IMG/VR virus record: IMGVR_UViG_3300020045_001505
Span: 1 to 43,467 of that record
DNA: 43,467 nucleotides
From: a virus
Lineage: Duplodnaviria; Caudoviricetes
Reading direction: 5' to 3' (one strand)
The notes beneath the pieces were generated by a model that saw only the letters and a list, made by a program, of their open reading frames with translations, made no database searches and was not told where the DNA came from. The position numbers and the translations under genes were made by a program. This document shows positions 4,177 through 38,919 of the stretch, piece by piece. The stretch's first letter is position 1. Each line of letters begins with the position of its first letter.

Positions 4177-4374
4177 ATGAATACGAAAAACGAAGATTGG
4201 CTAATCGTCATCCCTTCTGAAGGGGTGACATGCCATGTCTATGGGACATGGAAAGAGGTGAAGGAAGAGATCAATAACCCCGTGCTGTCTCTTGTCCATC
4301 TTGAGGACATGTGTATCCTCAGGAAAGTGAGGGGGAGTTGGGTTAATTACGAGGTTCCAAAATGTTTGAGGTAG
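4177..4374 (+). CDS. hypothetical protein
   Basis: ATG 4177 behind GAGG. Confidence 0.45.
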   Translation: MNTKNEDWLIVIPSEGVTCHVYGTWKEVKEEINNPVLSLVHLEDMCILRKVRGSWVNYEVPKCLR

Positions 4375-4589
4375 GTGATATTGTATGCCTAAAGTGGGGC
4401 AGCACCAACGCATACATTGCGGTAGTCACCAAGGTGGTGGACCACCTTGTAACCTGCAACTGGTTCGATTCAGACGTTAATATCGGGAGTGTTGATTACG
4501 ACGAATCAAAACTCACCAAAGCTCCTCCGAACCACCCCCTCTACCCCTCCATAATGGAATATTTTGGGAGTCTTGACCTATGGCTTTGA
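4362..4589 (+). CDS. YodC-like beta-barrel protein with LxxWL C-terminus
   Basis: MFEVGDIVCLK...VTCNWFD; ends SLDLWL*. Confidence 0.65.
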   Translation: MFEVGDIVCLKWGSTNAYIAVVTKVVDHLVTCNWFDSDVNIGSVDYDESKLTKAPPNHPLYPSIMEYFGSLDLWL

Positions 4590-4858
4590 AAAACCCTGCC
4601 AGATGGATTGAAGAGTGGGAACAAAATCGTCCTATACACTGGGGCGCTTTTCGTGAGCTGTCTGCGGTGGAAGTAGCAGAGAAAGTTCTTGAGAACCAAG
4701 AAAATATTATGGGACTCAGGTGGGATTGGCTTGAAAAGTTTATCCCTCAAGACTTGATAAGGGATTACCATGAAGGTAAAAGATGTGAGAGTGTTGGTGC
4801 CTTCTTTTTAGGGGTGCTTCAACTGTGTCAACCCAAAAGGCTAGAGGACTGGCTATGA
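4580..4858 (+). CDS. helical-family protein with LxxWL C-terminus
   Basis: Ends PKRLEDWL*; core aligns without gaps to ORFs 11443, 12194 and 12520. Confidence 0.65.
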   Translation: MALKNPARWIEEWEQNRPIHWGAFRELSAVEVAEKVLENQENIMGLRWDWLEKFIPQDLIRDYHEGKRCESVGAFFLGVLQLCQPKRLEDWL

Positions 4859-5214
4859 AACTGTTTGTCTATGGAACGCTGAAGAGTGGACACTACAACA
4901 ACCGTCTGCTTCTTCGTTCAACCTTGTTGGGGGAGGGGGTGACGAAAGACACCTACCTCCTCTACAATCGAGGGTTTCCTGTGGCTGTCGCAAGTCAATC
5001 TGCCAAGGCCCTCCCTGTAAGGGGGGAAGTGTGGGAAGTGGATGAAGACATCATCAGTATTGATCGGTTGGAGGGACACCCCAACTGGTATCAACGACAA
5101 GAGGTGAAGGTTGATGTCAACGGGGAAGAAGTGATTGCATGGATGTATCTCCAACCTAATAGTTTAGGAGACTACCTATGTAATAGTCTTAATAATGTTT
5201 ATTATTGGGACTAA
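4855..5214 (+). CDS. gamma-glutamylcyclotransferase (AIG2-like/GGACT)
   Basis: LFVYGTLK, VRGEVWEV, DRLEGHPNWYQR motifs; ATGA overlap and GAGGA SD. Confidence 0.9.
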   Translation: MKLFVYGTLKSGHYNNRLLLRSTLLGEGVTKDTYLLYNRGFPVAVASQSAKALPVRGEVWEVDEDIISIDRLEGHPNWYQRQEVKVDVNGEEVIAWMYLQPNSLGDYLCNSLNNVYYWD

Positions 5215-5230
5215 TTTTTAACCCCCTAAA

Positions 5231-5282
5231 CATATATAGGTTGTTTTCTCCCTTTGTCAAGGGGCAGGAGAAAATATTTTTT
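5231..5282 (-). promoter_or_regulatory. sigma70-type promoter, antisense orientation
   Basis: On the - strand: AAAAATATTT-N11-TTGACA(5260-5255)-N16-TATATA(5238-5233); same motif at 11749, 17310 and 38801. Confidence 0.65.
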
Positions 5283-5322
5283 AGGGTGTGAGGAGATGAG
5301 ATATATGTAGGAACAATGGTGA

Positions 5323-5394
5323 AGGCTCCCTCACAAAGAAATTCCCAACTACCTAACCCCAATAACGCACACACAACTAGAGGATTGGCTATGA
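5323..5394 (+). pseudogene. remnant of an LxxWL-tail gene
   Basis: Frame reads RLPHKEIPNYLTPITHTQLEDWL* with in-frame stops upstream (5308, 5320) and no start. Confidence 0.55.
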
Positions 5395-6251
5395 CTAATA
5401 TCATTCTCCGTCGCCCTAAGCTGGGACGAGCAACGAAACACGTTGTGGAGCAAGCAGCTTTTCTTGATAAGGTGGTTCGTAATGATAAACCCCTTCCCCC
5501 CAACTTGAACTACGTGTTTCGTTGGGGCACCACCACCAACGTAAATGCCACCCACATCGTCAACTCAGCGGGGGCAATTCACAAGGTTAATGACAAGGCA
5601 GGCTTCCGTCGCATCCTAATGGCTGCGCAGAGGCCCGGAGAGGCCCCTCTGAGCCCCTTTACGGTGTTCTCAGCCCCTACCCCTGCTGACGAAGCCAACG
5701 GCCTTGTATGGCCCCTTGTGGTGCGTCCTCAGACACATGCCCAAGGGAAGCATGTCTACAAGGTGAACAACCAAGCCGAGCTTGCAGCGGCTGCTGCCCG
5801 TTGTGGTGGTGGTTGGTATGCTGCCAACTACATCAACAAGGTGGCTGAATATCGTGTCACCTTTGTCCAAGGACGTGTGGTTTGGGTGGCTCGTAAAACC
5901 CCCGGCAACCCTGAAGATGTTGCATGGAATGTGGCGCGGGGCGGACGTTTTGATAACGTGCGTTTTGATGAATGGCCCCTCAAGGCTATTCGTATCTCCC
6001 GTGAGGCTTTCCTCCTTAGCTCCCTTGATTTTGGGGCTGTTGATGTGATGGTGGATGGGGATGGTAATGCGTATGTGTTGGAAATCAACAGCGCACCCTC
6101 TCAGACAAGTCCATATCGTCAAAGCTGTATGGCGAAGGCGTTTGACTACATCATTGCCAATGGGGCTGCACCTATTGGTGTGACACAAGATCGTGGTGGG
6201 TGGAAGAAGTTTGTCCATCCCGCTGTTTCCGAAGAAGCAATCATGGTGTGA
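5391..6251 (+). CDS. ATP-grasp peptide ligase
   Basis: VNDK, WPLVVRP, EYRV, DFGAVDV and VLEINSAP ATP-grasp motifs; start at ATG 5391 with GAGGA SD. Confidence 0.88.
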   Translation: MTNIILRRPKLGRATKHVVEQAAFLDKVVRNDKPLPPNLNYVFRWGTTTNVNATHIVNSAGAIHKVNDKAGFRRILMAAQRPGEAPLSPFTVFSAPTPADEANGLVWPLVVRPQTHAQGKHVYKVNNQAELAAAAARCGGGWYAANYINKVAEYRVTFVQGRVVWVARKTPGNPEDVAWNVARGGRFDNVRFDEWPLKAIRISREAFLLSSLDFGAVDVMVDGDGNAYVLEINSAPSQTSPYRQSCMAKAFDYIIANGAAPIGVTQDRGGWKKFVHPAVSEEAIMV

Positions 6252-6254
6252 GAC

Positions 6255-7109
6255 ATGTTTATTAAGGAACGGAAGGCCCTCCAAAAGACGGCCACGCAAG
6301 AGTGCAATGGTCATGGCAATAACAATGCCTACTTCTCGTGGATTTACGACACTGACACAGGCCCCAAGTTTGGCACCCCTCGCTGGGGGTATTGCCATGG
6401 CGACCTGATGTCTGACCGTGGGTATGTCCCCAAAAATACCACACACCTGTGTGTTGGCATCACCCCCTTGAAAGTGGATGAGACGGAAGCCCTTCGCTAC
6501 TATGACTGGCTTCTTAATCGTTCTCCCTTTGCGGACATCTTTTTGGAGAAAGATGTCTCCAATATCTTGGAGGTGGGGCTCCTGCTGTCAACTGACCATC
6601 CCAACAACCTTGTGTTGTTGGCCCTGATTGCTTCTCGATGGGCGACAGAAATCCACAGCAAAGAGATCACTGCTCGTTGGCCCACTTACCAGAAGCTGTT
6701 GAAAGCTGGGGCCACTGAGAACGAGGCCTTTATCTTTGCCCATCTGTTTAATGGGAAAGATGGTGGGACGGTGTTGCAACGCTTGCATAACGGACACTCA
6801 GTGTTTGACCTGCAAGACGCCAATGAGAAAGTATATCGTAACTTCCTCGAAAACACCCCAGAGAAACGTCTCCAAACGTTCAAAGAGAGGTGTGGTTACG
6901 CCAGCTCTGGCAATGTTGGGGCAAACACTTGGGGTGAACGGCGCTCAGACGCCTTCTTCTCTTGGATGAAAACCCTGAAACCCCGTCGCCTCGTGGTCCA
7001 ATGTGACCACAACATCTTCCGTAAGAAGTCCCAAGAGGGTTTTATTATTGCAGATGTCCCAGACCTCTCTGACATCATCAAACAAATCAAGGAGCGAATT
7101 TATGCCTAA
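6255..7109 (+). CDS. hypothetical protein of the ligase cluster
   Basis: 284-aa ORF between the ATP-grasp and GATase genes. Confidence 0.75.
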   Translation: MFIKERKALQKTATQECNGHGNNNAYFSWIYDTDTGPKFGTPRWGYCHGDLMSDRGYVPKNTTHLCVGITPLKVDETEALRYYDWLLNRSPFADIFLEKDVSNILEVGLLLSTDHPNNLVLLALIASRWATEIHSKEITARWPTYQKLLKAGATENEAFIFAHLFNGKDGGTVLQRLHNGHSVFDLQDANEKVYRNFLENTPEKRLQTFKERCGYASSGNVGANTWGERRSDAFFSWMKTLKPRRLVVQCDHNIFRKKSQEGFIIADVPDLSDIIKQIKERIYA

Positions 7110-7716
7110 GGTGGCAATCGTTGGACTTGACTTTCAAGTTCGTCAAATGTTTATGAAAAGAGGTTGGTCTGTCGTCGAGAATGACGGGGACGCCGATCTG
7201 ATTGTATTCACTGGGGGGTCTGATGTTGACCCCTCATATTACGGGGAAGCGAAACACCCTGCCACTCGTTCAGACCCTAGCAGGGATGCACGAGAGGCCA
7301 CTGTCTATAACCGGGAGAAGGGTGGTCCAGCTTTTGCAGGGATTTGTCGTGGTGGACAATTCCTGAATGTAATGAATGGCGGCAAGATGTGGCAGCATGT
7401 CACCGAACACGCCACTGGTCGTCTCCACCCTGCGACGTGCCTCCTTACGGATAAGGATGTCATTGTCACCTCGACACACCATCAGATGATGATCCCCGGC
7501 CCTGACGCCACCCTTCTCCTCGTCGCTGACATCTGCCAATCCAAGCAGGGGGCAGACAAGCAAGAGGTTGGGAACCAAAGCCCCGACGTGGAAGCCCTGT
7601 TCTATCCAGCCACTCGGTCGTTGTGTTTCCAGCCTCACCCTGAGTATGTAGGTATTGCGCATGAGTGCCAATGCCTGTTCTTTGAATACATTGAAAAACT
7701 TATGGAGATTAAGTGA
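7102..7716 (+). CDS. class I glutamine amidotransferase-like / peptidase C26
   Basis: TGGSDVDP, GICRGGQ (nucleophile elbow), STHHQ and FQPHPE triad motifs; AAGGAG SD. Confidence 0.9.
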   Translation: MPKVAIVGLDFQVRQMFMKRGWSVVENDGDADLIVFTGGSDVDPSYYGEAKHPATRSDPSRDAREATVYNREKGGPAFAGICRGGQFLNVMNGGKMWQHVTEHATGRLHPATCLLTDKDVIVTSTHHQMMIPGPDATLLLVADICQSKQGADKQEVGNQSPDVEALFYPATRSLCFQPHPEYVGIAHECQCLFFEYIEKLMEIK

Positions 7717-9140
7717 TGTGTGGGCTGGTTGGCGTAGCAGGTAAGAACCTGTCGATGCAAGAGGAGAAGGTGTTCCACACTCTTCTTATCCTTGACACCC
7801 TCCGAGGTGAAGATAGCACTGGGGCGGCGATCATCAAGCAGGCTTGGCATGATCCCGCTGTGGAAGTGTTGAAAGAAGTTGGAGGTGCTTCCGAACTGTT
7901 TTACAGCTACGGAAAGAAGGGAGTGATTGTCCAAGGGTTTGCAGATATTTTGCTTGGGCATAACCGCTTTGCCACGCAAGGGCTTATCAACACAGATAAC
8001 GCCCACCCCTTTGAGTTCGAGAATCTGGTGGGGGCACATAACGGCACCCTTCAAATGGATTCCCTCAAAGAGTTCCACGACTTCGATAAATACGATGTGG
8101 ATAGTAAGATTGTTTATTCCCATCTCAATCACACTGGTGACATCAAACAAGTGTGGAAAGATGCTGATGGTGCTTTGGCTCTAACGTGGTATGATAAGGT
8201 CACGAAAGAACTTAAGATGATCCGCAACAGCAAACGACCATTGTTTGTCGCCTACAGCAAGAATGATGGAACGGTGTTCTGGGCATCCGAGTCATGGATG
8301 ATCGCTGTTGCTACCAGCCGCAACAATGTTGAAATCCACCCCATCTTTGAGATCAACACTGATACCCTCTACACCTTCACCTCCAAGGCAAACGTTGGCT
8401 TCCCTGCTAACAAGATGAGCCACACGGAGGAGAAAATCCCCCCTTTCGTCCCAAAGGTCGTTGTTTGGAATGGGGGGAACAACTATGGTGGGCGATTTCA
8501 AGGCGGCTGGGAAGACTGGAACTACGACTACACCCCCACATCACAACGGCAAACCGTTCAGAAGGCTGTCCAAGAAAGAACGCCGACAGATAAGGCGTCA
8601 GAAAAAACAGACCTCCTGATCGTGAAAGAGATTCACGAGAACAACGTCATCCCCTCTGCTGTTGCATTTACACCCAAGGGGGAGTTTGTTCGTATCAACA
8701 TCCCTTCTCATATGTTGGGGCTTGCTAAGGACAAAATCCTTTCGAGTGCTGGGCAGGGCTTCTTTACGACCAAGCACATGAAAGAGAGTGCTGAACGTAA
8801 TGGCACCAAGTGGGTGAACTGGGGTGCCCTCCACCTTGTAAAGCTGAAGGATGGCTACAGCATCATCAAGAAAGATGGCCCCTTTAACAACTTCCTGTGG
8901 GAAATCAAAAAGACTTCCCCCGCCCCTACGTCAGTTGAATGGGCCAAGTGGCACGACCCCGCTGTGCTTTTGACGAAAGACGCATGGCTGGGTAAAGTGT
9001 CCTGCGGCTGTGTCAATTGTAACGTCGTCCCTGAGTGGCCCACCCATGACCAACTTGGATGGACTGATGCCAACACCTTTTTCTGTGCAGACTGTATGGA
9101 AACTGGATTCGTGCAAGACCTGATGAAAACTTATCACTGA
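7716..9140 (+). CDS. class II (Ntn) glutamine amidotransferase with C-terminal extension
   Basis: MCGLVG N-terminus, RGEDSTG, HNRFATQG, NAHPF, HNGTL, DS; C-terminal CxxC...CxxC. Confidence 0.9.
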   Translation: MCGLVGVAGKNLSMQEEKVFHTLLILDTLRGEDSTGAAIIKQAWHDPAVEVLKEVGGASELFYSYGKKGVIVQGFADILLGHNRFATQGLINTDNAHPFEFENLVGAHNGTLQMDSLKEFHDFDKYDVDSKIVYSHLNHTGDIKQVWKDADGALALTWYDKVTKELKMIRNSKRPLFVAYSKNDGTVFWASESWMIAVATSRNNVEIHPIFEINTDTLYTFTSKANVGFPANKMSHTEEKIPPFVPKVVVWNGGNNYGGRFQGGWEDWNYDYTPTSQRQTVQKAVQERTPTDKASEKTDLLIVKEIHENNVIPSAVAFTPKGEFVRINIPSHMLGLAKDKILSSAGQGFFTTKHMKESAERNGTKWVNWGALHLVKLKDGYSIIKKDGPFNNFLWEIKKTSPAPTSVEWAKWHDPAVLLTKDAWLGKVSCGCVNCNVVPEWPTHDQLGWTDANTFFCADCMETGFVQDLMKTYH

Positions 9141-9151
9141 GGAAAACAGAT

Positions 9152-10054
9152 ATGAAACTCACTGCTTCGAACGGCCAAACCTACGATTTCAAAATTGGTG
9201 CTGACCCCGAGTTCTTCGTCAAGAAGTTTGGTCAATTGACCTCCGCTTATGGGCTCATCCCCGGTTCCAAAGATAAGCCCTACCCCGTCAAAAAGGGTGC
9301 TGTCCAAGTGGATGGTATGGCGCTAGAGTTTAACATTGATCCCGCAGACTCGTATTCGGAGTTTGAAGAGAACATGTCTACGGTGCTTGACGGCATCATC
9401 GCCATGGTTCCGGGGTATGAAATCTTCGTTGAACCTGTGGCCGATTTTGGCCTTGAGTATATCAAGTCCCAACCCAAGGAAGCCTCTGATCTGGGTTGCT
9501 CCCCCGACTTCAACGCCTACACCAAGACGGCCAACCCCCGTCCCGATGTCAACACCCCCTTCCGCACTGCCTCGGGCCACGTTCACATTGGCTGGACGAA
9601 TGGGGTGGACATTAACGATGAAGGGCACTTGGAAGCTTGTCGTGCGCTTACCAAAGCACTTGACCTCTACCTTGGTGTCCCCTCCCTGACGTGGGACCGA
9701 GACGACCGTCGTCGTTCTCTGTATGGTGCTGCTGGCGCTTTCCGTCCCAAACACTATGGCATGGAATACCGAGTGTTGTCGAACAAGTGGATTATGAACC
9801 CCACATTGCGTAAGCTGGTGTATCACAACACCATTGACGCTATCAAGGCGGTGATTGAAAACCCCGACGTTGGTGACAAAGTTCTTATGGGTGGCCTCAC
9901 TGCCCGTCAGGTTATCGCCAAGGATAGCACCGATTTCGTGGAGTCCAAAGACCCCGCAGGCAATACGGTTAAAATCCCTATGTGGGAAGCTGCTGTAGGC
10001 GCAGTTTTCCGCACCTCTGTCAAGCCCCCGAAATTCTACCGTGAAGGTGTCTAA
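9152..10054 (+). CDS. phiEco32-like COOH-NH2 ligase type 2
   Basis: IGADPEFF, DGMALEFN, GCSPDFNAY, RTASGHVHIG, RRSLYG..GAFRPKHYGMEYRVLSN. Confidence 0.9.
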   Translation: MKLTASNGQTYDFKIGADPEFFVKKFGQLTSAYGLIPGSKDKPYPVKKGAVQVDGMALEFNIDPADSYSEFEENMSTVLDGIIAMVPGYEIFVEPVADFGLEYIKSQPKEASDLGCSPDFNAYTKTANPRPDVNTPFRTASGHVHIGWTNGVDINDEGHLEACRALTKALDLYLGVPSLTWDRDDRRRSLYGAAGAFRPKHYGMEYRVLSNKWIMNPTLRKLVYHNTIDAIKAVIENPDVGDKVLMGGLTARQVIAKDSTDFVESKDPAGNTVKIPMWEAAVGAVFRTSVKPPKFYREGV

Positions 10055-10605
10055 TGTATGACGATCTGGGATATGCCCAACGACGACTGAATAGCAGCCT
10101 TATCCGTGACGAAGCAGGAGACCCATTCTGGGTGAGGGAGGTGGATATTGACGCTGATGGGGATTTCATCTGCATTGGTGAAATCTACGGCCCTCGGGCG
10201 GGGCGTAAGACAGTTAAGCTGAACAAGGTTAATCTCAACCCAGTTCCTCTCGGGTTTGTTAACCTGCCAGATGGGGGCGGCATGGTGTTCACTTGTCGAA
10301 AGCCTGTGCGTCGTCCCCGCCAAGGCCTCTCCAATGAGGCTCTGGTGGTCACGGGGGAGGCTGCTGGGGGCTTCTCCTTTAAGCACCTTGTCCAACCCAT
10401 CTTCAACACCTACCCCTCATGGGGGGCCGCTCTACGGCTCTCCAAGGACCGTCCCTCTGTTGCCTTCAGCCGAGACTTTGGATTGAAGGGCGAGGAAATC
10501 TTCTACAGAGGTCATAGGGTGGGGCGGGTTGTTGACTCTCTTCCCATCTTGGATGATAAAATGTTCTTCTTGGGCGAAAGCCTGAAACTTAGCGCAGGGA
10601 TGTAA
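10054..10605 (+). CDS. hypothetical protein of the ligase cluster
   Basis: 183-aa ORF, TAATG coupled. Confidence 0.75.
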   Translation: MYDDLGYAQRRLNSSLIRDEAGDPFWVREVDIDADGDFICIGEIYGPRAGRKTVKLNKVNLNPVPLGFVNLPDGGGMVFTCRKPVRRPRQGLSNEALVVTGEAAGGFSFKHLVQPIFNTYPSWGAALRLSKDRPSVAFSRDFGLKGEEIFYRGHRVGRVVDSLPILDDKMFFLGESLKLSAGM

Positions 10606-10606
10606 A

Positions 10607-11446
10607 ATGAACGTTCAATCTCTTTTCCGTCTTCCTCCCACCACGGGGGATGTTGGCATTGAAATCGAGATGGAGGGAAAGAGTCTCCCTTCGGGAGAGG
10701 CTGTCTCTAAATACTGGACAAAAGAGGCCGATGGTTCTCTCCGTGGGGAAAGTGCGGAGTATGTCCTCCAAAAGCCAGTGGAAGTGAAAAACATTACGAA
10801 AGCTCTCAACGAGCTTGAGAAAGCTTTCAACTCCCACGGCACCACCTTCTACAAGAGCCATCGGGCAGGCATTCACGTTCACGTCAACGTGCAAGACCTG
10901 ACACCAAACCAACTGGTGAGCTTCATCACCGCCTACTGTGTTCTGGAAGAAGTGTTCCTGTCATACTGCGAGGAATCTCGTCGTGGGAACCACTTCTGTC
11001 TCCGTTTGTCTGACGCCTCGTGGCTCATGGACGAGATTGCCAAGGCAATTGAGGAGGGGGATTTGTCCCGCTTTCGTAACGACGACCTCCGTTATGCGTC
11101 AATCAACCTGACAGCCCTGCACAAATACGGGTCGGTTGAATTTCGTGCCTTGGAAAGCACAGATGATTTCGACAAGATCACTATTTGGGCTAAAGCCCTC
11201 CACCAACTTAAGGTGTGGGCTTCTGGTGTATCTGACCCCACGGAGGTGATTGCCCAGTCTTCTCTCTTGGGGTTCTTGCCCTTTGCCAAGAATATGTTGG
11301 GGGATTATTGGCAAGTGTTTGCCCCCCTTGCAACCGAAGAGAAGATCATTCGCGGTGTCCGGAACATCCAATACGCTGTCTACTCGCGTAAGTGGGGTGG
11401 GGTTAATCACAACATCTTTAGCAAAAATTCAGGGGTTTTTCAATGA
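10607..11446 (+). CDS. putative amidoligase (glutamine-synthetase-fold COOH-NH2 ligase)
   Basis: VGIEIEMEG, DGSL, GIHVHVN, RYASINL, GSVEFR. Confidence 0.88.
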   Translation: MNVQSLFRLPPTTGDVGIEIEMEGKSLPSGEAVSKYWTKEADGSLRGESAEYVLQKPVEVKNITKALNELEKAFNSHGTTFYKSHRAGIHVHVNVQDLTPNQLVSFITAYCVLEEVFLSYCEESRRGNHFCLRLSDASWLMDEIAKAIEEGDLSRFRNDDLRYASINLTALHKYGSVEFRALESTDDFDKITIWAKALHQLKVWASGVSDPTEVIAQSSLLGFLPFAKNMLGDYWQVFAPLATEEKIIRGVRNIQYAVYSRKWGGVNHNIFSKNSGVFQ

Positions 11447-11749
11447 ATGTGGGAGCTTTTGCGAACAACCCCAAGGAATGTCTGTTCCCCTATAAAACAG
11501 AGAAATTTAGGGGCCTGTCCGATGCGGATTTTATCGCCCTTTTGCTAGATCAACCTTACAACATTAACTGCCTTGAGTGGACAAGACTAAAAAATAATTA
11601 CGGTCTTCCACCAGCGGATGCACAAGCTTACTATAGATTCGCACTAGGGGGGGGAAGGGTATGCTAAGGAGGGGTTTGAACGGGTCAAAAACTTCCTAGA
11701 GCAGGCTCTTCACTACCTTAATCCAAAGGAGTTGGACGAATGGTTGTGA
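11443..11749 (+). CDS. helical-family LxxWL protein, frameshifted at a G8 tract
   Basis: As given it stops at 11667; removing one G from 11647-11654 gives 101 aa ending YLNPKELDEWL*. Confidence 0.65.
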
Positions 11750-11796
11750 AAAATATTTCTCTACCCCCTTGACAAACCCCTTAGATGAGCTATATA
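11749..11796 (+). promoter_or_regulatory. sigma70-type promoter upstream of the LxxWL array and replication genes
   Basis: AAAAATATTT-N10-TTGACA(11769-11774)-N16-TATATA(11791-11796). Confidence 0.7.
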
Positions 11797-11805
11797 GGAA
11801 ATAGA

Positions 11806-12012
11806 ATGAGATATAAAGATTGTGTTCTAGGGGGTTTGTATAAAGATCGTCATGGAGATATTTTCCAGACGATTGAACCACCTACTAGATGGATGAATGG
11901 GGCTTGGTGGGAGGTGAGGGCAAACTCAATCTCAATCAGGGGATGTATAACTTATAGGTTTTACCTACGAGACCTCACCCCCTTTGTAGAGGAGCTAGAT
12001 TCGTGGTTGTAA
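11806..12012 (+). CDS. small protein with LxxWL C-terminus
   Basis: MRYKDCVLGGLYKDRHG...LTPFVEELDSWL*; start placed downstream of the promoter. Confidence 0.65.
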   Translation: MRYKDCVLGGLYKDRHGDIFQTIEPPTRWMNGAWWEVRANSISIRGCITYRFYLRDLTPFVEELDSWL

Positions 12013-12197
12013 TTTGCGTCGATAATAGTGGGGCTGACTACTACCTCACTGTCGGGAAAGCGTATAAGGTGGTTAAGGAGGGTGAGTCTGGCGGTGTAAG
12101 TATTATATGGGTGGAGGATGATACGGGACGTTCCTTTGGCTTTTTTCCAAGCAGATTTTCCCCTTTTCCAGTAGAACAGTTGGAGGATTGGCTGTGA
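12003..12197 (+). CDS. SH3-like small protein with LxxWL C-terminus
   Basis: VICVDN..LTVGKAYKV..VEDDTG..RF; ends EQLEDWL*; GAGGAG SD. Confidence 0.7.
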   Translation: MVVICVDNSGADYYLTVGKAYKVVKEGESGGVSIIWVEDDTGRSFGFFPSRFSPFPVEQLEDWL

Positions 12198-12523
12198 ACT
12201 TTGTTGGACTAGCTGAACACCTCCTGACCCACTGGGATGAATATCTTTGGGGAGACGAGGAAACTGGTGAAACCCCTTTTCCGAAGCACCTCCCAGTTCC
12301 AGAGCAGGCTTTGATCCTACTTAATGACATCTCTCTGCTTAACTGCCTTAAATGGTATCACCTTTCTAAAGTGATGGGTGCATTCGATGTGTATGTAAGT
12401 ATGGATCAGTTCGAGGATGCCTTCGACCATCGCTCTTACACCTATGCACCTTTGTTGGAGAAAACCTTGTCCCTTGTTGTCTCTACTGGTTGGCCCCCTA
12501 CGAAACTAAAGGATTGGCTATGA
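12194..12523 (+). CDS. helical-family LxxWL protein
   Basis: GTGA overlap and GGAGG SD; GLAEHL..W..YLW shared with the next gene; ends TKLKDWL*. Confidence 0.7.
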   Translation: MNFVGLAEHLLTHWDEYLWGDEETGETPFPKHLPVPEQALILLNDISLLNCLKWYHLSKVMGAFDVYVSMDQFEDAFDHRSYTYAPLLEKTLSLVVSTGWPPTKLKDWL

Positions 12524-12852
12524 AAAATGCCCTTGGCCTCGCAGAGCATTTGCGGGAAAATTGGGAAGACTATTTGTGGCATGAGGCAATGGAGGACGAG
12601 GATTTTTCTAACCTCACCCCAGCCGAACAAGCGCAGGCCATGCTTACAGAACCAGTTAACCTGAATTATTTGAAGTGGAAAAGAGCTGCCAAGGCCATGC
12701 GAAGCTTTGGCTTCGCAGAAGAATGGGAACTTGAAAACTTGATGGGAGATGTTTATGAGGGAGAAGGTTGGGAGGCATTCCCAGACTTAGCAGACGTTCT
12801 AGATTTGGTTGTAAGCCTTGAACGTGTAAAAGGACTTGATGAATGGCTCTAG
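12520..12852 (+). CDS. helical-family LxxWL protein
   Basis: ATGA overlap; paralog of 12194; ends KGLDEWL*. Confidence 0.7.
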   Translation: MKNALGLAEHLRENWEDYLWHEAMEDEDFSNLTPAEQAQAMLTEPVNLNYLKWKRAAKAMRSFGFAEEWELENLMGDVYEGEGWEAFPDLADVLDLVVSLERVKGLDEWL

Positions 12853-13055
12853 TTGGATATGTTTTCGCCCCACACGTCAAAATGTCCCAGCAGTGGAAGG
12901 ACAGACATAATTGGACAGACTCAAGTATTCTCCTCCACATAGGTGAGAACAGATACACCATCATTGTTAAAGTTCCTACAGGGGAGGAGCGAATGTATTG
13001 GAATACAGACTTGATGCCTGTATACGAGAGTAGGGGGTTGGAAGAATGGCTCTAA
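12843..13055 (+). CDS. small protein with LxxWL C-terminus
   Basis: Ends RGLEEWL*; AAGGA SD. Confidence 0.65.
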   Translation: MALVGYVFAPHVKMSQQWKDRHNWTDSSILLHIGENRYTIIVKVPTGEERMYWNTDLMPVYESRGLEEWL

Positions 13056-13246
13056 CCCCTTATATTGCAATTCGGGACGTTGGCCACTTCTTCACCGAGG
13101 GACAGGTGTATTATGTAGAACCCCTAGACGAAAAGGGGAAATACTGGATGGTTACAGATAGGGGGTTTAGGCAATATGTAGATAAATCCGTGCTCAAAAC
13201 TTACCTGACACCTTTTGAAATTGAGGAGCTTGATGAATGGCTTTAG
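13046..13246 (+). CDS. SH3-like small protein with LxxWL C-terminus
   Basis: FTEGQVYYV..VTDRG; ends YLTPFEIEELDEWL*. Confidence 0.7.
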   Translation: MALTPYIAIRDVGHFFTEGQVYYVEPLDEKGKYWMVTDRGFRQYVDKSVLKTYLTPFEIEELDEWL

Positions 13247-13464
13247 CAACATTCCAGCCATCTAACACTTGGGACTATAAAGCATGGGTGGATTGGGGAA
13301 AGGGTGAGGGACTTAACGTGGGGGATATTGTCGAGACAGAAGACCACCCCACCAACCCCGCCCTCTGTCGAGTCTTCACTCCTCGCTCAAGAGTCCCCCT
13401 AAATATGCTTAGACAAGCATTTCCCCTGTATGTAGAACTTAAAAAATTAGAAGATTGGTTGTAA
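13237..13464 (+). CDS. small protein with LxxWL C-terminus
   Basis: GLNVGDIVE; ends KKLEDWL*; GAGGAG SD. Confidence 0.65.
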   Translation: MALATFQPSNTWDYKAWVDWGKGEGLNVGDIVETEDHPTNPALCRVFTPRSRVPLNMLRQAFPLYVELKKLEDWL

Positions 13465-15433
13465 TGGGAACACAGATTGACGCGTTGCCGCATAGTTGTG
13501 GCACTAAGAAGGGGCTTAAAGTATTTGCCCAAGACGATGGACGTGTAGATGGTTTCTGTTTCTCTTGTCACACGAAAGTGGCACATCCATACGGAGAAGA
13601 AAAAGTCCTAGAAGACCTCCCCAAAAAGCGGGAGAAAACAGAACTAGAAATCCAAGCAGAGATTGCTGAGGTGGAGGGGTTTCCCACGGTGGATATTCCT
13701 CAACGTAAGCTTAGGGCTTCCACACTAAATAAGTTCGGTGCCTACACCTCAATGTCTGAGAAGGACGGGGTGACACCCACAGCAATCTACTGGCCAGTGA
13801 CAAAAGAGGGGAAGCTTACGGGCTATCATGTAAAAAGTGTAGACAAATCCTTCTCCCCCTTTAACATTGGGGAGACTAAGGGGGCTGACCTCCTCAACTG
13901 GCAAAATGCTAAATCATCTGGGGCCTATCGACTAATCATCACTGAGGGGCCAGAAGACATGGCTTCTGTAGATCGTATTTACGAAATGCACGGAGACCCT
14001 GCCTACACCCCCGCTGTCGTATCTCTCCCTCATGGGTCAGCTAGTGCCAAAAAGGTTTTGACACGACATGCAGAAGACATCCGTAAGCTTTTCAAAGATG
14101 TCATCTTGTGCTTCGATGATGATGATGCTGGGAAGCGGGCAGTGAAAGAGGGGATGCTTGTTCTCTCTAATGCCAAAGCTGTCACACTACCTGTTAAGGA
14201 CGCCAATGAGGCCCTCCTGAAGGGTGTTGCTAAGGCTGCCTATAACGCCCTAGCCTTTAGGGCAGAGGCCCCTAAAAACACCTCTCTGGTGTTCGGAGAG
14301 GCCATTCACGATAAGGCAAGAGAGCCTGCCAAATTTGGTGAGCTGTCTTGGCCATTCCCTCACATGAATAAAGCTACCCGTGGCATCCGCTATGGAGAAA
14401 CTGTTTATGTTGGGGCGGGGGTTGGTTTAGCCCCATTCAGGTGAGAGCCTGTCTAAAAACTGTGTGAACTCAGGGGAACCCTAGAACAGGCAATCCTGAG
14501 CCAAGCCCTAAGAACCCTTAGTGGGTCGTGTTAGGGAAGGTGCAACGACTATCCCGTGAGGGAGTAGGGGGAAGTCCTCCGAAGCGCACAGCACCCTTTT
14601 AGGGGTGATGATATAGTCTGGTCTGCATAGGGATATGCAGCAATGTAAAACATTGGGGTGTGATTAACGACCACACTTTAACACAACGAAAGATGGGTAA
14701 GAGTGAGTTCCGCAACGAAATTGCAGCCCATTTTATCAAAAACCATGGTGTCAAGGTGTTTATGGCCTCTCCCGAAGAGGCTAATTCCAAAACCTATAAA
14801 CTGCTGGCCGGGAAATTGGAGGGGAAAATCTTCCATGACCCAGAAAAGGAATTTGATTATGATGCCTATGATCGTGCAGGCAAGCTTCTTCGTCCTAATC
14901 TCGCTGTTCTCAACCTCTATCAGCACATGGGGTGGGAAAGCCTAAAGAAGGACATGGTGTCCGCAGCAGAGTGGGGGGCTAAAGCCCACTTCATTGACCC
15001 CATTACCAACTTGACTAACGGTGTCAATTCGGGGGAAGCTAATACGATGTTGCAAGGGATTGCTCAGGATATTTCTGCCATGTCTCTTGACCTTGGTATT
15101 GTCGTCTTTATGTTCTGCCACTTGAAAGCCCCTGAAGGGAACATTTCGGCAGATCAACGAACAGCCAAATACAAATCTGGTAAGTATATTGGTTTGGGGA
15201 ATTGCCCTCACGAAATGGGGGGTGATGTGCTTTCTTCGCAATTTGCAGGTTCTCGGGCGATGATGCGTTCCGCAAACTTGATGATTGGCCTCGAAGGGAA
15301 TAAAGACCCCGAATTGCCAGAGGAAGTAAGGAATATTCGTAATATTCGAATCCTTGAAGACCGAGAGTTTGGGCTAAGTGAGAAGTTCCAGATTTTTTGG
15401 AACAGAGAAACGGGGAAATTTGCAGAGCTATGA
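13464..15433 (+). CDS. T7 gp4-like primase-helicase, spliced (exons 13464-14422 and 14689-15433, 567 aa)
   Basis: Zn-finger residues (HSC...CFSC), TOPRIM IITEGPED and CFDDD; splicing restores Walker A GAGVKMGKS; FIDPIT, FCHL and FAGSRAM helicase motifs. Confidence 0.9.
14423..14688 (+). mobile_element. group I intron (IA-like, 266 nt, no ORF)
   Basis: P1 GGGGU|UG with UAGCCCC (U.G at the splice site); P4 CTCAGG/CCTGAG; P3 CTGTGT/GCACAG; P7 GACTA(14547)/TAGTC(14614); P9 CTGCATA-GGGA-TATGCAG; terminal G 14688. Confidence 0.92.
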
Positions 15434-16624: not shown

Positions 16625-17974
16625 ATGCCAGTCTTTGATTGCGAGGCAGATGGACTATTCCCTACTAAGTTCTACGTCTTGTCGTATCAAGACGGGGATG
16701 AAGTTAGGTCATTAACGACACACGAAGAGATGAGGGAATGGCTACTTTCTCAGAGAGAGCTTGTTGGCCATAACATCTCATCTTGGGACATTCCTCAACT
16801 AGAGCGTGTCCTACAAATCAAGATTACAGCTAAGATTATCGACACCCTCTACCTTTCGTGGTATCTCTACCCTAACCGGGTTAGGCATGGGCTAGAGTGG
16901 TGGGGACAAGATTTGGGGGTGGAGAAGCCGGAGATTAAAGATTGGTATTCTCTGACGTTGGAGGAATATGTCCACCGTTGTGAAGAGGACGTTAAGATTA
17001 ACATTCTCCTCTGGGAGAAGCAGAAAGCCTATCTACGTCTGCTCTACACCTCCCCCGATGCAGAGAGCCTTCCGATTATTTCCTACCTCATGTTCAAGGC
17101 AGATTGTGCCAGAGAGCAAGAGAGGAGTAGGTGGAAGCTTGATGTAGATTGGTGTAAGGCTGCAATTGAGAAGCTAGAGAGTGAACAAGCTCCACGTATT
17201 GAGTCCCTTAAGGCTGCAATGCCCAAAGTGATTAAAAGGGTTTTGAAAAACCCCCCCACCAAACCTTTCAAGAAAGATGGAACTCTGTCCGTTGAAGGGT
17301 TTAAGTGGCAAAATTATTTACGTGAACAGGGCTTGACAAACAACCATTCACTCCCTATATATGTAGTAACAGGAGAAGAGCCGCCTAATCCAGATAGCCC
17401 AGTTCAAGTGAAAGATTGGCTATACAGTTTGGGGTGGGAACCAGAAACATTCAAGTTTGAAAAGGAGGCTGATGGGAGTGAGAGAAAAATCCCTCAGGTC
17501 AAGATTCCTCAATCCCCTGATCTGTGCCCTAGCGTTCTACAATTGGCAGAAACAACCCCTGCCATCTTGGAACTTCAGGGACTATCTGTGGTCCGACACC
17601 GACTTGGTATTCTTCGTGGATTCCTCGAAAACATGTCGGAAGATGGGTGGGTCAAGGCCAGAATCCAAGGGCTGACTAACACCCTCCGCTTTAAGCACAC
17701 AGAGGTTGTAAATCTCCCCGGTGTGAATAAGCCCTACGGTGAAGAGGTCAGGGGGTGTCTTGTAGCCCCTGAGGGCTATGAGTTGGCTGGGACTGATATG
17801 GCTGCCCTTGAGAATAAGACGGGGGACCACTACGTGTATACACTAGACCCAAGATACGTCGAAGAGAAAAATACTCCGGGTTACGACCCCCATATTGAAA
17901 TGTGTGTAATGGCTGATTTGATTACGCAAGATGAGGCAGACTTTTATAAATGGTATCAGACCCAACCCCACTAA
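16625..17974 (+). CDS. polA: family A DNA polymerase, N-terminal part (3'-5' exonuclease to motif A)
   Basis: VFDCEADG, GHNISSWD, RCEEDV, TNTLRFKH..VNLP, GTDMAALE (motif A), DPH. Confidence 0.9.
   Translation: MPVFDCEADGLFPTKFYVLSYQDGDEVRSLTTHEEMREWLLSQRELVGHNISSWDIPQLERVLQIKITAKIIDTLYLSWYLYPNRVRHGLEWWGQDLGVEKPEIKDWYSLTLEEYVHRCEEDVKINILLWEKQKAYLRLLYTSPDAESLPIISYLMFKADCAREQERSRWKLDVDWCKAAIEKLESEQAPRIESLKAAMPKVIKRVLKNPPTKPFKKDGTLSVEGFKWQNYLREQGLTNNHSLPIYVVTGEEPPNPDSPVQVKDWLYSLGWEPETFKFEKEADGSERKIPQVKIPQSPDLCPSVLQLAETTPAILELQGLSVVRHRLGILRGFLENMSEDGWVKARIQGLTNTLRFKHTEVVNLPGVNKPYGEEVRGCLVAPEGYELAGTDMAALENKTGDHYVYTLDPRYVEEKNTPGYDPHIEMCVMADLITQDEADFYKWYQTQPH
17310..17361 (+). promoter_or_regulatory. 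internal promoter-like motif within the polymerase gene
   Basis: AAAATTATTT-N13-TTGACA(17333-17338)-N17-TATATA(17356-17361). Confidence 0.5.
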
Positions 17975-18417
17975 CGGGTTTCGCAACAACCCCCTTAATT
18001 GTTAAGCCCATGACCGCCACACCTTCTAAATACCCTCAAAAGGGGTTTAAAGAAAAGGCTTGTGGGTGGTGTGGAAAACAGTTTGCCCCACAAAGCCCCA
18101 GTCACCTTTACTGTAGTATCTCATGCAGAAAACAAGTCAATTCTGATAAGCACTACCAGAGAAGATATAAGGTTGGGCTAAGGTGGGTGCAAGAAAAATT
18201 AGATGAGCAAGGGTGGAAATGCGCCATCTGCAAGATCACACCTTTTAAGATGAGGGAGGATCATGTGTCAGGGTTAAATCTCGACCATTGCCACACAACA
18301 GGTAAAGCTAGAGCACTTTTATGCCACAACTGTAATCGAGGTATCGGGTTGTTACAAGATAGCCCAGAGATTTTAAGGGCAGCAGCAGACTATTTGGATT
18401 TCCACAATGACTCTTGA
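17950..18417 (+). CDS. endonuclease VII-like homing endonuclease inserted in the polymerase gene
   Basis: QGWKCAIC, LDHCHTTGKARALLCHNCNRGIG..DS..L.AA.YL; N-terminal CxxC..CSxxC; start 17950 or 18010. Confidence 0.88.
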   Translation: MVSDPTPLTGFATTPLIVKPMTATPSKYPQKGFKEKACGWCGKQFAPQSPSHLYCSISCRKQVNSDKHYQRRYKVGLRWVQEKLDEQGWKCAICKITPFKMREDHVSGLNLDHCHTTGKARALLCHNCNRGIGLLQDSPEILRAAADYLDFHNDS

Positions 18418-18967
18418 AGAAATGAAGGCGTTGCCCCCAGAAAAGCAGAAAGCCTTAATCTCTCGCATTAAAATCGCCAGACATAAAGGTAAGACTACCG
18501 TGTATTCTGCGACATACGGTGTGGGGGCTGCGAAGTTGGCCCGTGAGTTGAAGGTAGACACTAAAGAAGCCAAACGGCTTCTTGAAGCCTATTGGAAACG
18601 TAATTGGGCTGTAAGACAGATTGCCGATGAGTGTAAAACCAAGACAATTAACGGACAGATGTGGTTGTTCAACCCAGTCTCTAAGTTTTGGTATTCTCTT
18701 CGTGCAGAAAAAGACCGCTTCTCTACACTCAATCAGGGCACTGGTGTGTTCTGTTTTGATAGTTGGGTGAGGGAAGTGAGAAAAGTTAGACCACAACTCA
18801 CTGCACAGTTCCACGACGAGATCATCCAATGTGTTAAGATTGGACATAGAGAAGAAGCTACGAAGCTCCTTAAAGACGCCATTGATCGTGTGAACAGCAA
18901 ACTAAACTTGAACGTAAAACTTGGGATTGAAACTCAGTTCGGCCCTAGATACTCATCTATCCATTAA
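18407..18967 (+). CDS. polA: family A DNA polymerase, C-terminal part (motifs B and C)
   Basis: RHKGKTTVYSATYG (motif B, Tyr at the 762-equivalent position), STLNQGTG, QFHDE. Confidence 0.9.
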   Translation: MTLEEMKALPPEKQKALISRIKIARHKGKTTVYSATYGVGAAKLARELKVDTKEAKRLLEAYWKRNWAVRQIADECKTKTINGQMWLFNPVSKFWYSLRAEKDRFSTLNQGTGVFCFDSWVREVRKVRPQLTAQFHDEIIQCVKIGHREEATKLLKDAIDRVNSKLNLNVKLGIETQFGPRYSSIH

Positions 18968-23153: not shown

Positions 23154-23212
23154 AAATTCTGTTGCTAGACATTGAGACTTTTAGTGATGGGAGGGGCAGG
23201 AACCTTGATTGA
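23150..23212 (+). pseudogene. displaced original 5' end of the exonuclease gene
   Basis: Reads MKILLLDIET-FSDGRGRNLD*, versus LKVLLLDIEV at 23642. Confidence 0.75.
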
Positions 23213-23645
23213 CCTCTTAGGCAATGAGGTCGTGGATTACACCCTAAGTGAAGATGGTCGAGTTTTTAGTCACAAACGTCAGAGATACCTCTCGCAGTGG
23301 TTAAACTCCTCTGGGTATCTGACAACAAAAATCGGCTGTCGAACCTCCTCTATACACCGCCTACTTGCACTTAACTTTATACCTAACCCTGATAACCTCG
23401 AAACAGTTAATCATAGAGACCTTAATAAACTTAACAATTCGCTTGACAATCTTGAGTGGTTGTCTCGTGAGGATAATGTAAAACACGCCTTGAAAAAGTC
23501 TTACCATCTTCGTTCTCCGCAAGGAGATATTGTGCTAATTACCGGGTTGGCAGAGTTTTGTCGCCAAATGGGGCTTACACAAGCAAACATGTCTAAAGTA
23601 ATTTTGGGTCAACGCCCGCACCACAAGAATTGGAGACTACCCTGA
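23205..23645 (+). CDS. HNH homing endonuclease
   Basis: SEDGRVFS, IHRLLALNFIPNP..TVNHRDLNKLNN..NLEW; C-terminal HTH-like segment. Confidence 0.88.
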   Translation: MIDLLGNEVVDYTLSEDGRVFSHKRQRYLSQWLNSSGYLTTKIGCRTSSIHRLLALNFIPNPDNLETVNHRDLNKLNNSLDNLEWLSREDNVKHALKKSYHLRSPQGDIVLITGLAEFCRQMGLTQANMSKVILGQRPHHKNWRLP

Positions 23646-24545: not shown

Positions 24546-25208
24546 TTGACAAAGCTAACCGCTAAACTAGTGGGGGTGACAACCCCCCTAATCCCCCTTC
24601 AAGAGGAGGGGGCTGAAGGTTTGATTGCATACTGTGCCCGTGTGAGCAACCCACAGTTTCAAGATAAGCCAATTGGTCGGTTGTTCGACTATTGTATGGA
24701 GAACCATCACTGGTCCATCTTTGAGATGGCCGATGCTATTGTGGAAGTGGAGGCCCCCCGAGACATTACACGACAGATGATCCGACACACCTCTTTCCGT
24801 TTTCAGGAATTTAGTCAGAGGTATTCAGACGAGATTGAATTTACGGAGAGAGACTTCCGTGTGCAAGATGAGAAAAATCGTCAGAATAGTTTTGACACTT
24901 TCTCTGACGAGCAAAAGGACCAATTGAATGTTGGCCTAAAAGCTATCATTCAGGACATCAATGACGCGTATAAAGCCCTTCGTGCAATCGACGTGGCTAA
25001 GGAATGTGCCCGCGTAATTCTCCCTGAGGGGCTTACTATGTCTCGTCTCTACATGAAGGGCAGCCTACGTTCTTGGATGCACTATTTGGATGTAAGGGAA
25101 GGAAACGGGACACAACTAGAACACCAAATCCTTGCTAACAAGATTAGGGAAGCTCTCCTACCCGCTTTTCCCCGTGTTCTAGGAAATACTGTTAATGTGG
25201 AGACTTGA
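24546..25208 (+). CDS. thyX: flavin-dependent thymidylate synthase
   Basis: ARVS, HWSIFE, RHTSFRFQEFSQRY, ECARVILP, TQLEH. Confidence 0.93.
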   Translation: MTKLTAKLVGVTTPLIPLQEEGAEGLIAYCARVSNPQFQDKPIGRLFDYCMENHHWSIFEMADAIVEVEAPRDITRQMIRHTSFRFQEFSQRYSDEIEFTERDFRVQDEKNRQNSFDTFSDEQKDQLNVGLKAIIQDINDAYKALRAIDVAKECARVILPEGLTMSRLYMKGSLRSWMHYLDVREGNGTQLEHQILANKIREALLPAFPRVLGNTVNVET

Positions 25209-25680
25209 AGATTGTATAAGGTATGAGCCGAATACCGGGGTTTTGATTTGGAAAGAGAGGGTCAATAAAAACATCTCGATAGGTCAGATCATTGGGACAA
25301 AACATAGTAAAGGTTATTTGTTCTTTAGGTTGAACAGAAAGTTTTATTTTTGTCATAGGGTTGCTTGGTTCCTCCACACAGGTTTTTGGCCTGTTGGGGA
25401 GATTGACCACGAGAACGGAGTAAAGTCTGATAATCGGATTAACAACCTACGAGATGTGACGCACCAACAAAACATGTGGAACAAGACCTCACAGAAAAAC
25501 ACTAGTTCTGCTTATAAAGGGGTCCACAAGATCAAAACTAGTGGGAAATGGCGAGCAACTTTGTGGAATGGCTTTTCCAAGTTGCATCTTGGAACTTTTA
25601 CAGACGAAAAGGAAGCAGCATTAGCTTATGATGCAGAAGCAAGAAGGGTTTTTGGTGAATATGCAAGAGCAAACTTTTAG
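25195..25680 (+). CDS. HNH-AP2 homing endonuclease
   Basis: HRVAW, IDHENGVKSDNRINNLR; AP2 SAYKGV..WRA..HLGTF...AALAYD. Confidence 0.9.
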   Translation: MWRLEDCIRYEPNTGVLIWKERVNKNISIGQIIGTKHSKGYLFFRLNRKFYFCHRVAWFLHTGFWPVGEIDHENGVKSDNRINNLRDVTHQQNMWNKTSQKNTSSAYKGVHKIKTSGKWRATLWNGFSKLHLGTFTDEKEAALAYDAEARRVFGEYARANF

Positions 25681-26969: not shown

Positions 26970-27412
26970 CCTACGAAACCTCTGCACGAGAGTTTAGTCG
27001 TGCGTTTAATCAACCTCTTGACAACACTGGCCCCACCGAAGACCTTCTTGCCCTACGGTATAAGCTCCTCTTTGAGGAGGTAATTGAGCTTCGTAACGAG
27101 ATGGCCATCGCCATGGCAGAGAGCCACTTCAAAGACGGCATCCAACCAAAAACTTGGGAACGTCTCCTTAAAGAGCTGGCAGATGTCCAATACGTTGTTA
27201 GTGGCTTGGCTGTCACCTTTGGACTGCCCCTAGAGGAGGCCTTCAATCGTGTTCACAAAAGTAACATGAGCAAGCTAGGGGAAGATGGCACCCCCATCTA
27301 TCGTGAAGATGGGAAGGTTCTTAAAGGGCCTAACTACGCTCCCCCCGATCTTGAAGACCTCGTAACTAAATACGCTGCTATCCCCGGAACTGAATACTGG
27401 ATTTCTGAATGA
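26966..27412 (+). CDS. MazG/HisE-like NTP pyrophosphohydrolase
   Basis: EEVIE, KELADVQYV, VHKSNMSK, REDGKVLKGPNY. Confidence 0.88.
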   Translation: MTYETSAREFSRAFNQPLDNTGPTEDLLALRYKLLFEEVIELRNEMAIAMAESHFKDGIQPKTWERLLKELADVQYVVSGLAVTFGLPLEEAFNRVHKSNMSKLGEDGTPIYREDGKVLKGPNYAPPDLEDLVTKYAAIPGTEYWISE

Positions 27413-30248: not shown

Positions 30249-30472
30249 TTATCGACTTCATTCAATACAACGCTGCTGAGGCCATCCTAGTCCTCACCCT
30301 CATCAACACCTATCTGCTGTTTAAGCTCTTTAAGTGAACTACTTCCTCCCGTCTGTCTATGAGCGGGAACACTACAGGGAGTCATTTGTGTTACAAGCAG
30401 ATGGCTCCCCTTTCTTAATTGTCCCTAAACGAAACAAAATGGGTTTCGACCTCTCACCTAAGAAAGACCGTG

Positions 30473-38790: not shown

Positions 38791-38800
38791 GTCCGCCTCA

Positions 38801-38849
38801 AAAAATATTTATTTTTACCCCTTGACAAGGGTGATTTTTGCGCTATATA
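38801..38849 (+). promoter_or_regulatory. sigma70-type promoter antisense to the lysis and structural arm
   Basis: AAAAATATTT-N11-TTGACA(38822-38827)-N16-TATATA(38844-38849). Confidence 0.7.
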
Positions 38850-38919
38850 TGTATAAGGTTGGTTTTATAAAAATTATGCCAACCCTAAGAATATAACCAT
38901 ATACTAGTATATCTTAGTA

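Follow-up and report, generated by a model that had tools for sequence, protein, structure and literature searches.

The window analysed here, an entire 43.5-kb virus record (43,467 nt; IMG/VR IMGVR_UViG_3300020045_001505) whose open reading frames (ORFs) were scanned in six frames, contains arrays of small genes that end in the same short peptide, L-x-x-W-L, directly before the stop codon. The gene order is a first array, a gamma-glutamyl cyclotransferase (GGACT) gene with a cassette of putative amide-ligase genes, a second array, and then the primase-helicase and sigma factor genes. The best cultured matches of the window were PA11/CW02-like Zobellviridae (approximately 40% for the amidoligase and 47-54% for the primase), and this uncultured phage is a PA11/RIO-1-like podovirus. 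One related contig was found inside a Crocinitomix metagenome-assembled genome, which may be a clue to the host of the window, as may the likeness of its tail-fibre start to Roseobacter phages (see below).

The six-frame scan identified eleven L-x-x-W-L-stop ends, all on the plus strand (at 4589, 4858, 5394, 11749, 12012, 12197, 12523, 12852, 13055, 13246 and 13464), and none elsewhere in the window, as an earlier note on this DNA had described. They belong to nine intact ORFs of 64-111 amino acids (aa), one frameshifted gene and one remnant. Among the 60 plus-strand gene calls in 1-31200, nine end in this way, whereas 0.011 would be expected. Five codons for the last Leu and all three stop codons are in use among the eleven ends, and a Pro lies 8-14 residues before the end, at no fixed position, in eight of the nine intact genes and in the piece ending at 11749; both observations agree with the earlier note, which had counted Pro in nine of ten.

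All tagged genes lie on the plus strand. The first array consists of the ORF at 4362..4589 (75 aa, ending SLDLWL), a YodC/DUF2158-like small barrel (phrog_3261, E 1.1e-10; its DUF2158 match, E 0.014, was below the cut-off), and the ORF at 4580..4858 (92 aa, ending RLEDWL), a weak member of a helical family whose stop overlaps the GGACT start. A remnant tail of a lost gene, QLEDWL (5326..5394, 23 open codons), overlaps the start of the ATP-grasp gene and holds the predicted ribosome-binding site of that gene; in relatives, this slot is occupied by one to four intact tagged genes. A frameshifted helical-family gene (11443..11749) overlaps the end of the amidoligase and is in two pieces, the first at 11443-11667 and the second closing with ELDEWL at 11749. 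The break coincides with a G8 run (11647-11654), and both pieces match the helical protein encoded at 12520 (E 1.6e-4 and 0.003). The G8 run, which lies outside the coverage of three DNA sequencing runs, may represent a slipped-strand switch, decay or an assembly error. The second array consists of the ORFs at 11785..12012 (likely start ATG 11806; ending ELDSWL), 12003..12197 (64 aa; ending QLEDWL; SH3-like on weak evidence, DUF6501 E 0.061), 12188..12523 (helical family; ending KLKDWL), 12520..12852 (helical family; ending GLDEWL), 12843..13055 (70 aa; ending GLEEWL), 13046..13246 (66 aa; ending ELDEWL; resembling 12003) and 13237..13464 (75 aa; ending KLEDWL), the last of which overlaps the primase start. 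The overlaps with GGACT (ATGA, 4855-4858), the ATP-grasp gene (5391-5394) and the amidoligase (11443-11446), to all of which translational coupling had been proposed, are real, as is that with the primase.

Selection on the tail was assessed with 60 of the 65 pattern matches in the window and four related IMG/VR genomes (G002-G005), three opposite-strand matches and two short frames having been dropped. When tails were anchored on [DE][DE][YW]x-stop, Leu occupied position -5 in 45 of 48, with both CTN and TTR codons; when they were anchored on L[DE][DE]xx-stop, an aromatic residue occupied position -2 in 48 of 49, TGG and TAY being common and TGY absent. An expected figure of 14.9 Cys was discarded as circular, the rows having been selected for W/Y/F. 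Comparison of the copies within each of the five genomes gave synonymous differences (pS) of 0.84-1.05 over the last five codons; only pS was used, because the nonsynonymous value (pN) of the tail is low by construction. Synonymous sites of the tail are therefore saturated within a genome, indicating that the tail is not a DNA repeat. The tail is kept by selection as a peptide at the exact C-terminus, with Leu at -5, an aromatic residue at -2 and Leu or Met at -1 held. The earlier suggestion of selection on the peptide is borne out by the anchored counts, by the saturated pS and by codon choice compared with the need for a ribosome-binding site.

This last comparison bears on a different explanation, in which the tail would be a nucleotide by-product: GAG GAT would act as a ribosome-binding site and TGG would provide an overlapping start, the whole having spread as a recombination joint, with the peptide inert. 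The two middle residues are mostly acidic and their codons also form the ribosome-binding site of the next gene, a Shine-Dalgarno 4-mer is present in 35 of the 60 tails, and even a basic flavour of the tail (locus L089) retains AGGA. Some tails overlap the M-T-T-F-K or M-A-L start of the next gene, the 5394 remnant persists where it holds the ATP-grasp site, and islands of DNA identity centre on tails. Likewise, the amidoligases of three array-free relatives end in EPLEDY over GGAGG-7nt-ATG (L004 10043-10930, L005 11405-12292 and L019 639-1523). However, the next start lies at -4 (20), -1 (15), after the stop (13), -10 (6) or -14 (3) relative to 58 tagged genes (one unassigned), and the same peptide occurs in all five registers rather than as a DNA-fixed motif tied to one of them. 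Of 109 other coupled genes in these genomes, a single one has a similar end, which is itself a tail variant. Moreover, site-forming tail codons were found in 33 of 42 cases in which the next start overlaps the stop, as opposed to one of eight in which the next gene has its own site (Fisher p 7e-4), and these eight tails still have two acidic middle residues (7/8) and end in Leu or Met (8/8). Tails of 13-15 residues in two cultured phages, phiM6 and RHph_N3_13 (see below), would be impossible to derive from a five-base site. Codon choice that follows the need for a site while the peptide stays unchanged thus largely refutes the by-product explanation, which we consider improbable.

In the four related IMG/VR genomes, arrays occupy the same slots as in the window, and some lie between the helicase and sigma factor genes. 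A metagenome scan with the ATP-grasp protein recovered 37 loci; 18 carried tails (one duplicates G003), and inspection found none in the other 19, which include short fragments with little upstream DNA. No tails were found in any of the six metagenome loci longer than 6 kb at 51-54% ATP-grasp identity. A quick ATP-grasp tree grouped 20 tagged rows in one clade (SH-aLRT 96), together with a single row that lacks upstream DNA; the tagged locus L126 fell outside this clade. The core motif across these relatives is L-x-x-[YWF]-[LM]-stop, often preceded by K/T-S/N, with Leu or Met as the terminal residue in 53 of 60 tails. Each genome tends towards its own flavour: W-L in 11 of 11 tails of the window, Tyr in 14 of 15 in G003, L-K-D-Y-M in L089, T-S-L-E-E-Y-M in L091, L-D-x-F-M in L094 and K-E-D-W-L, without Leu at -5, in L126. 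One tail with Cys at -2 is known (L092), and some tails are devoid of acidic residues (L-K-G-Y-M and L-A-S-Y-L). Conservation in relatives had been named beforehand as a test of the tail, and conservation at the protein level was indeed found across a clade of uncultured relatives. No cultured phage with an L-x-x-[YWF]-[LM] tail was found; the ATP-grasp search returned only RIO-1 and HP1, and RIO-1 is array-free.

The bodies, or heads, of the tagged proteins are diverse, and the variable heads proposed in the earlier note were recovered as many body clusters that are swapped between phages. Its description of ten unrelated proteins was overstated: 11443, 12188, 12520 and, weakly, 4580 form one helical paralogue family, and 12003 and 13046 are similar (E 2e-4, tail included in the comparison). 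At least two body classes, the helical family and SH3-like barrels, are nevertheless present, as it had stated. When tails were removed from 131 rows labelled as tagged by a loose pattern that admitted at least one false row, many small clusters resulted. Homologue searches returned, for ORF 12003, itself and one chimeric-looking record and, for ORF 12520, itself, the window paralogue and four repeat-like weak matches; an Atlas search with ORF 12003 gave 0.91-0.94 with low recognition. None of 11 proteins matched PADLOC profiles at E 0.01. Orthologue pairs of tagged genes gave ratios of nonsynonymous to synonymous substitution (dN/dS) of 0.08-0.52 (9 estimable of 13), and the heads are thus under purifying selection. 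Between loci L002 and L115, the ATP-grasp gene is 99.5% identical in DNA, whereas the adjacent tagged genes share 59% protein identity and are bordered by islands of 88% DNA identity at both tails, indicating that heads are exchanged and that tails can act as joints. Strain differences in the three DNA runs lay on single low-depth contigs and were set aside as evidence (4362 and 13237, nonsynonymous 5/5; 4580, synonymous 3/3; cassette genes, 17 synonymous and 4 not). An additional DUF2158 protein without a tail is encoded at 113-367 and is related to tagged ORF 4362 (36% over 36 aa); one head family therefore occurs both with and without the tag within the window genome.

Taken together, the tail is a real protein tag under selection, carried throughout a lineage by arrays of small phage proteins that are exchangeable. 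No description of such tails was found in the literature searched, and the available passages of PMC7824862 and PMC9960094 contain nothing on tails.

Between the two arrays lies the cassette, all of it on the plus strand. It comprises a GGACT (4855..5214; PF06094, E 1.1e-22), a predicted ATP-grasp ligase of 286 aa (5391..6251, start set by alignment; phrog_2599, E 6.7e-18, with weak Pfam RimK/Dala matches), a conserved protein of 284 aa and no known family (6255..7109; model pLDDT 85.8), a class I glutamine amidotransferase/peptidase C26 (7102..7716; PF07722, E 4.5e-16), a class II glutamine amidotransferase (7716..9140; PF13522, E 4.3e-16), a phiEco32-like COOH-NH2 ligase (9152..10054; PF14395, E 1.1e-9), a conserved protein of 183 aa with an N-terminal SH3/Tudor-like barrel and a basic segment (10054..10605), and an Amidoligase_2 enzyme (10607..11446; PF12224, E 1.9e-12). 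Amidoligase_2 and the COOH-NH2 ligase occur together, with the ATP-grasp, glutamine amidotransferase and GGACT genes in the same block; judged from its predicted families, the cassette belongs to the phiEco32/PA11 type, with all six enzyme types within 4855-11446. The barrel of the 183-aa protein (pLDDT 95.8) matched only a generic SH3/Tudor-like barrel in the fold search (Z up to 6.2, rmsd 2.0, 53 aligned), and its basic segment, R-x-P-x-R-R, is conserved. A homologue search with this protein gave two matches, and an Atlas search gave nothing at 0.9. The fold search with the 284-aa protein gave no clear match (best Z 4.7), which is not evidence of a new fold. A near-terminal N-I-F-x-K segment is common to the 284-aa protein (6255-7109) and the amidoligase (10607-11446) and is kept in tagged relatives; it is a second short motif common to two proteins inside the cassette.

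Arrays with entirely different tails were found beside the same type of cassette in two cultured phages. In the Sinorhizobium phage phiM6 (L076 4514-9119), whose host is Sinorhizobium meliloti, 13 ORFs carry a 15-residue acidic tail, Y-[KR]-x-D-Q-E-P-x-[ED]3-x-L. In RHph_N3_13 (L127 1231-17110), a phage of Rhizobium phaseoli, 15 ORFs end in Q-x-G-D-T-[DE]-[DE]-D-I, and each of six cassette genes is followed by one such ORF. The longer form of this tail, Y-x-P-x-Q-x-G-D-T-[DE]2-D-I, was shared by RHph_N3_13 with six contigs or records of uncultured origin. L014 has 15 ORFs with a tail of this type. IMG/VR was also scanned without reference to the cassette. The window tail gave arrays in four contigs, all four with the cassette, and the GDxDDDI tail gave arrays in five contigs, four of which carry cassette genes in the DNA examined; in the paired-motif scans, 38 of 43 and 29 of 32 stretches contained no tagged ORF. 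Three such cassette-blind pattern scans turned up no tail array outside the phages that bear the cassette.

The fixed terminal position, the three conserved hydrophobic residues and the concerted shifts of flavour within genomes suggest that each phage has one reader that grips the chain end. We consider it quite possible, if short of probable, that the tail is a docking motif linking exchangeable small proteins to this reader, foremost a cassette protein. This ranking follows from the recurrence of unrelated tails next to the cassette, which extends even to phages whose rhizobial hosts are related. A pocket of one partner would receive the three hydrophobic residues together with the free carboxylate, and the ATP-grasp protein (5391) and the 183-aa barrel protein (10054) are candidates for this partner; the heads, as small SH3-like barrels or helical proteins, would bind different targets, and the tagged proteins might then serve as substrate adaptors for the cassette ligases. 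F-box proteins are substrate adaptors of ubiquitin ligase, and the adaptor role proposed here is likened to theirs. That the whole constitutes a modular ubiquitin-ligase-like system, evolved more than once, in which 10-20 receptors clipped on by their tags steer a glutamyl-type modification onto host proteins, for example defence factors, is a more speculative extension that we hold to be rather doubtful.

Several observations weigh against a cassette reader. The co-occurrence of arrays with the ligase cluster, which had been put forward as a check, stands in one direction only: eight of nine array contigs carry cassette genes, but most cassette-bearing phages are array-free. A complete cassette stands without any array in 14 of the 15 more distant cassette loci from IMG/VR, in seven of nine GenBank records (RIO-1, KZY1, O4, MW202697, PKM.Hi.22.6, PJNS034 and Slicky01) and in all six metagenome loci above 6 kb at 51-54% ATP-grasp identity. 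As the tagged phages fall into two or three clades, array and cassette do not co-occur independently; an HMO-2011-like tail-fibre start, and perhaps a host group, is a further feature common to the tagged lineages. In relatives, tagged genes also occur between helicase and sigma factor, and the second array is preceded by a promoter-like element of its own and leads into primase and replication genes. Furthermore, a compensating-charge scan of 12 phage proteins found nothing that tracks the basic L089 flavour, and 7 of the 60 tails close with Ala, Lys, Val or Glu instead. The link between array and cassette is accordingly suggestive.

Alternatively, the tail might dock on a host hub, most plausibly a protease or its adaptor site (the ClpX N-domain, Lon or a PDZ-type clamp), with the heads delivering host proteins for degradation or jamming the hub and the cassette being a mere neighbour in the early-middle region. 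This explanation fits the tagged genes that lie beyond the cassette and follow a promoter-like element of their own, and the majority of relatives, which have the cassette without arrays. The L091 tails may resemble the alphaproteobacterial SspB tail, a likeness that the available passages of PMC5422525 do not confirm; those passages do describe species-specific binding of adaptors to the ClpX N-domain, which could explain flavours by host. A host hub is harder to reconcile with three unrelated tail sequences (of 5-9, 13 and 15 residues), of which two belong to phages whose rhizobial hosts are close relatives, with flavours that differ between close phage relatives, and with the lack of Leu at -5 in L126; we regard it as possible but not likely. 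The reader might instead be a protein of phage replication or of the virion; the tail would then tether the small proteins to the replisome or send them into the head for ejection. The second array is co-oriented with the primase gene and overlaps it, the tagged lineages have one type of virion module in common, an acidic-Trp tail closes the phage single-strand-binding protein (GEDW in G002 and G003, EEERW in the window), and a probable portal protein contains an internal KNLDDYL in G003 (L030 2248-4320) and G004 (L081 53-1354). An internal LDEFM is also present in the single-strand-binding protein. However, the number of internal matches is roughly what a pattern of five residues would give, and those in the portal and single-strand-binding proteins are probably due to chance. 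No such protein of at least 200 aa ends in the tail in G003, G004, L089 or L091, and the tagged genes lie in the early-middle region, making a replication or virion reader unlikely.

The tail could also be a substrate rather than an address, a cassette ligase adding glutamate or an amine to its terminal or side-chain carboxylates and GGACT and C26 removing it, with the small proteins as carriers or tags in the way that LysW serves LysX and S6 serves RimK. A RimK-like PHROG ATP-grasp and two carboxylate-amine ligases adjoin the arrays, the stop position is fixed and all three tail types are mostly acidic. Additionally, the passages available of PMC4431377 describe modification of C-termini by RimK and TTL, and those of PMC10433800 describe LysW, a small protein whose acidic, Trp-containing C-terminus (EDWGE) is read by LysX, an adjoining RimK-type ATP-grasp enzyme. 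Compared with LysW as presented in those passages, however, the tagged proteins of the window lack a terminal Glu, a zinc ribbon and zinc-binding cysteine pairs (no CxxC in the nine intact ORFs), and tails end in Leu or Met in the 53 of 60 cases given above. The LysX loop GSWGR is also missing; its equivalent is HAQG[KR] whether or not a phage is tagged (H-[AS]-Q-G-[KR] in 21 aligned rows, one of which reads R-A-Q-G-R). Some tails have no acidic residue, which would be needed for side-chain ligation, and a single carrier needs no dozens of unrelated bodies. Ligation of the tail therefore appears unlikely, and a docking motif for one reader remains the preferred explanation.

Docking by a short terminal motif has precedents, each of which differs from the arrays. 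Clients of T4 gp45 and PIP-box-type motifs place a short Leu-x-x-aromatic-hydrophobic C-terminal motif on unrelated phage proteins that meet one partner, whereas the tail here is carried by 10-20 small accessory proteins per genome and by no large replication proteins. SspB has a C-terminal tether sequence. Variable bodies with one common short address are seen in poxvirus ankyrin/F-box arrays and in proteins with the T4 capsid-targeting sequence; neither shows homology to the tagged proteins, the former involving a eukaryotic ubiquitin ligase and the latter a cleaved N-terminal signal of proteins packaged into the head, in contrast to the C-terminal motif of the window. In Pup/PafA tagging, Pup is a single disordered tag with a di-glycine-Gln/Glu motif at its end, whereas the tails end in an aromatic residue and Leu or Met on folded-looking, unrelated bodies. 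SspB-type ClpXP adaptors, in the available passages of PMC5422525, are alike in combining a variable target-binding head with a short C-terminal tether, but no sequence family match was found, the tagged genes are present in many copies, and the tails change completely from one phage clade to the next.

Many podoviruses carry the amide-ligase cassette, whose role has only been proposed: in phiM6, seven peptide-bond ORFs were suggested to modify host peptidoglycan (PMC6256558). The cassettes of phiEco32, PA11, RIO-1 and phiM6 share enzyme types with that of the window, but PMC6256558 is silent on tails or arrays, and most cassette-bearing phages examined are array-free. Small hypothetical genes make up the bulk of phage dark matter, and a selected tag unites dozens of them into one functional class. 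If the cassette is the reader, the tagged proteins would lead to its first substrates; if a host protease is the reader, they would form a natural library of adaptors for targeted degradation. Since phiM6 and RHph_N3_13 are cultured on tractable hosts that are not pathogens and have the same architecture, the question is directly testable.

A promoter-like element, AAAATATTT-N-CCCC-TTGACA-17-CTATAT, is repeated in the window. The copy at 5230..5285 on the minus strand (AAAATATTT..CCCCTTGACA-17-CTATAT) faces GGACT and the first array and is directed against the gene flow; of the 16 relative genomes examined, 14 have the element in this orientation. A plus-strand copy at 11751..11797 (TTGACA at 11769) lies ahead of the second array; it was not called by a generic promoter scanner, and a like element directly follows the amidoligase in L002 and L126. 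Two more plus-strand copies were found at 17311-17362 (copy at 17333), inside the polymerase gene and kept in relatives, and at 38800-38851 (copy at 38822), pointing against the minus-strand late genes. These copies possibly serve in antisense shut-off of early genes.

Elsewhere in the window, the N-terminus of the tail fibre (39726-41552, minus strand) resembles those of Roseobacter CRP phages and phiM6 (HMO-2011 type), and the replication block is PA11-like. Several genes, labelled by eye, are interrupted: the primase-helicase (13455-15433) is split, with a gap at 14444-14660; the DNA polymerase (16625-18967) contains an endonuclease-like ORF (17950-18417); a ribonucleotide reductase (27409-30090) seems to contain an intein; and a PhoH-like gene (30419-31158) lies in two pieces. 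Two further HNH-like ORFs, likewise labelled by eye, are located at 23172-23645 and 25195-25680.

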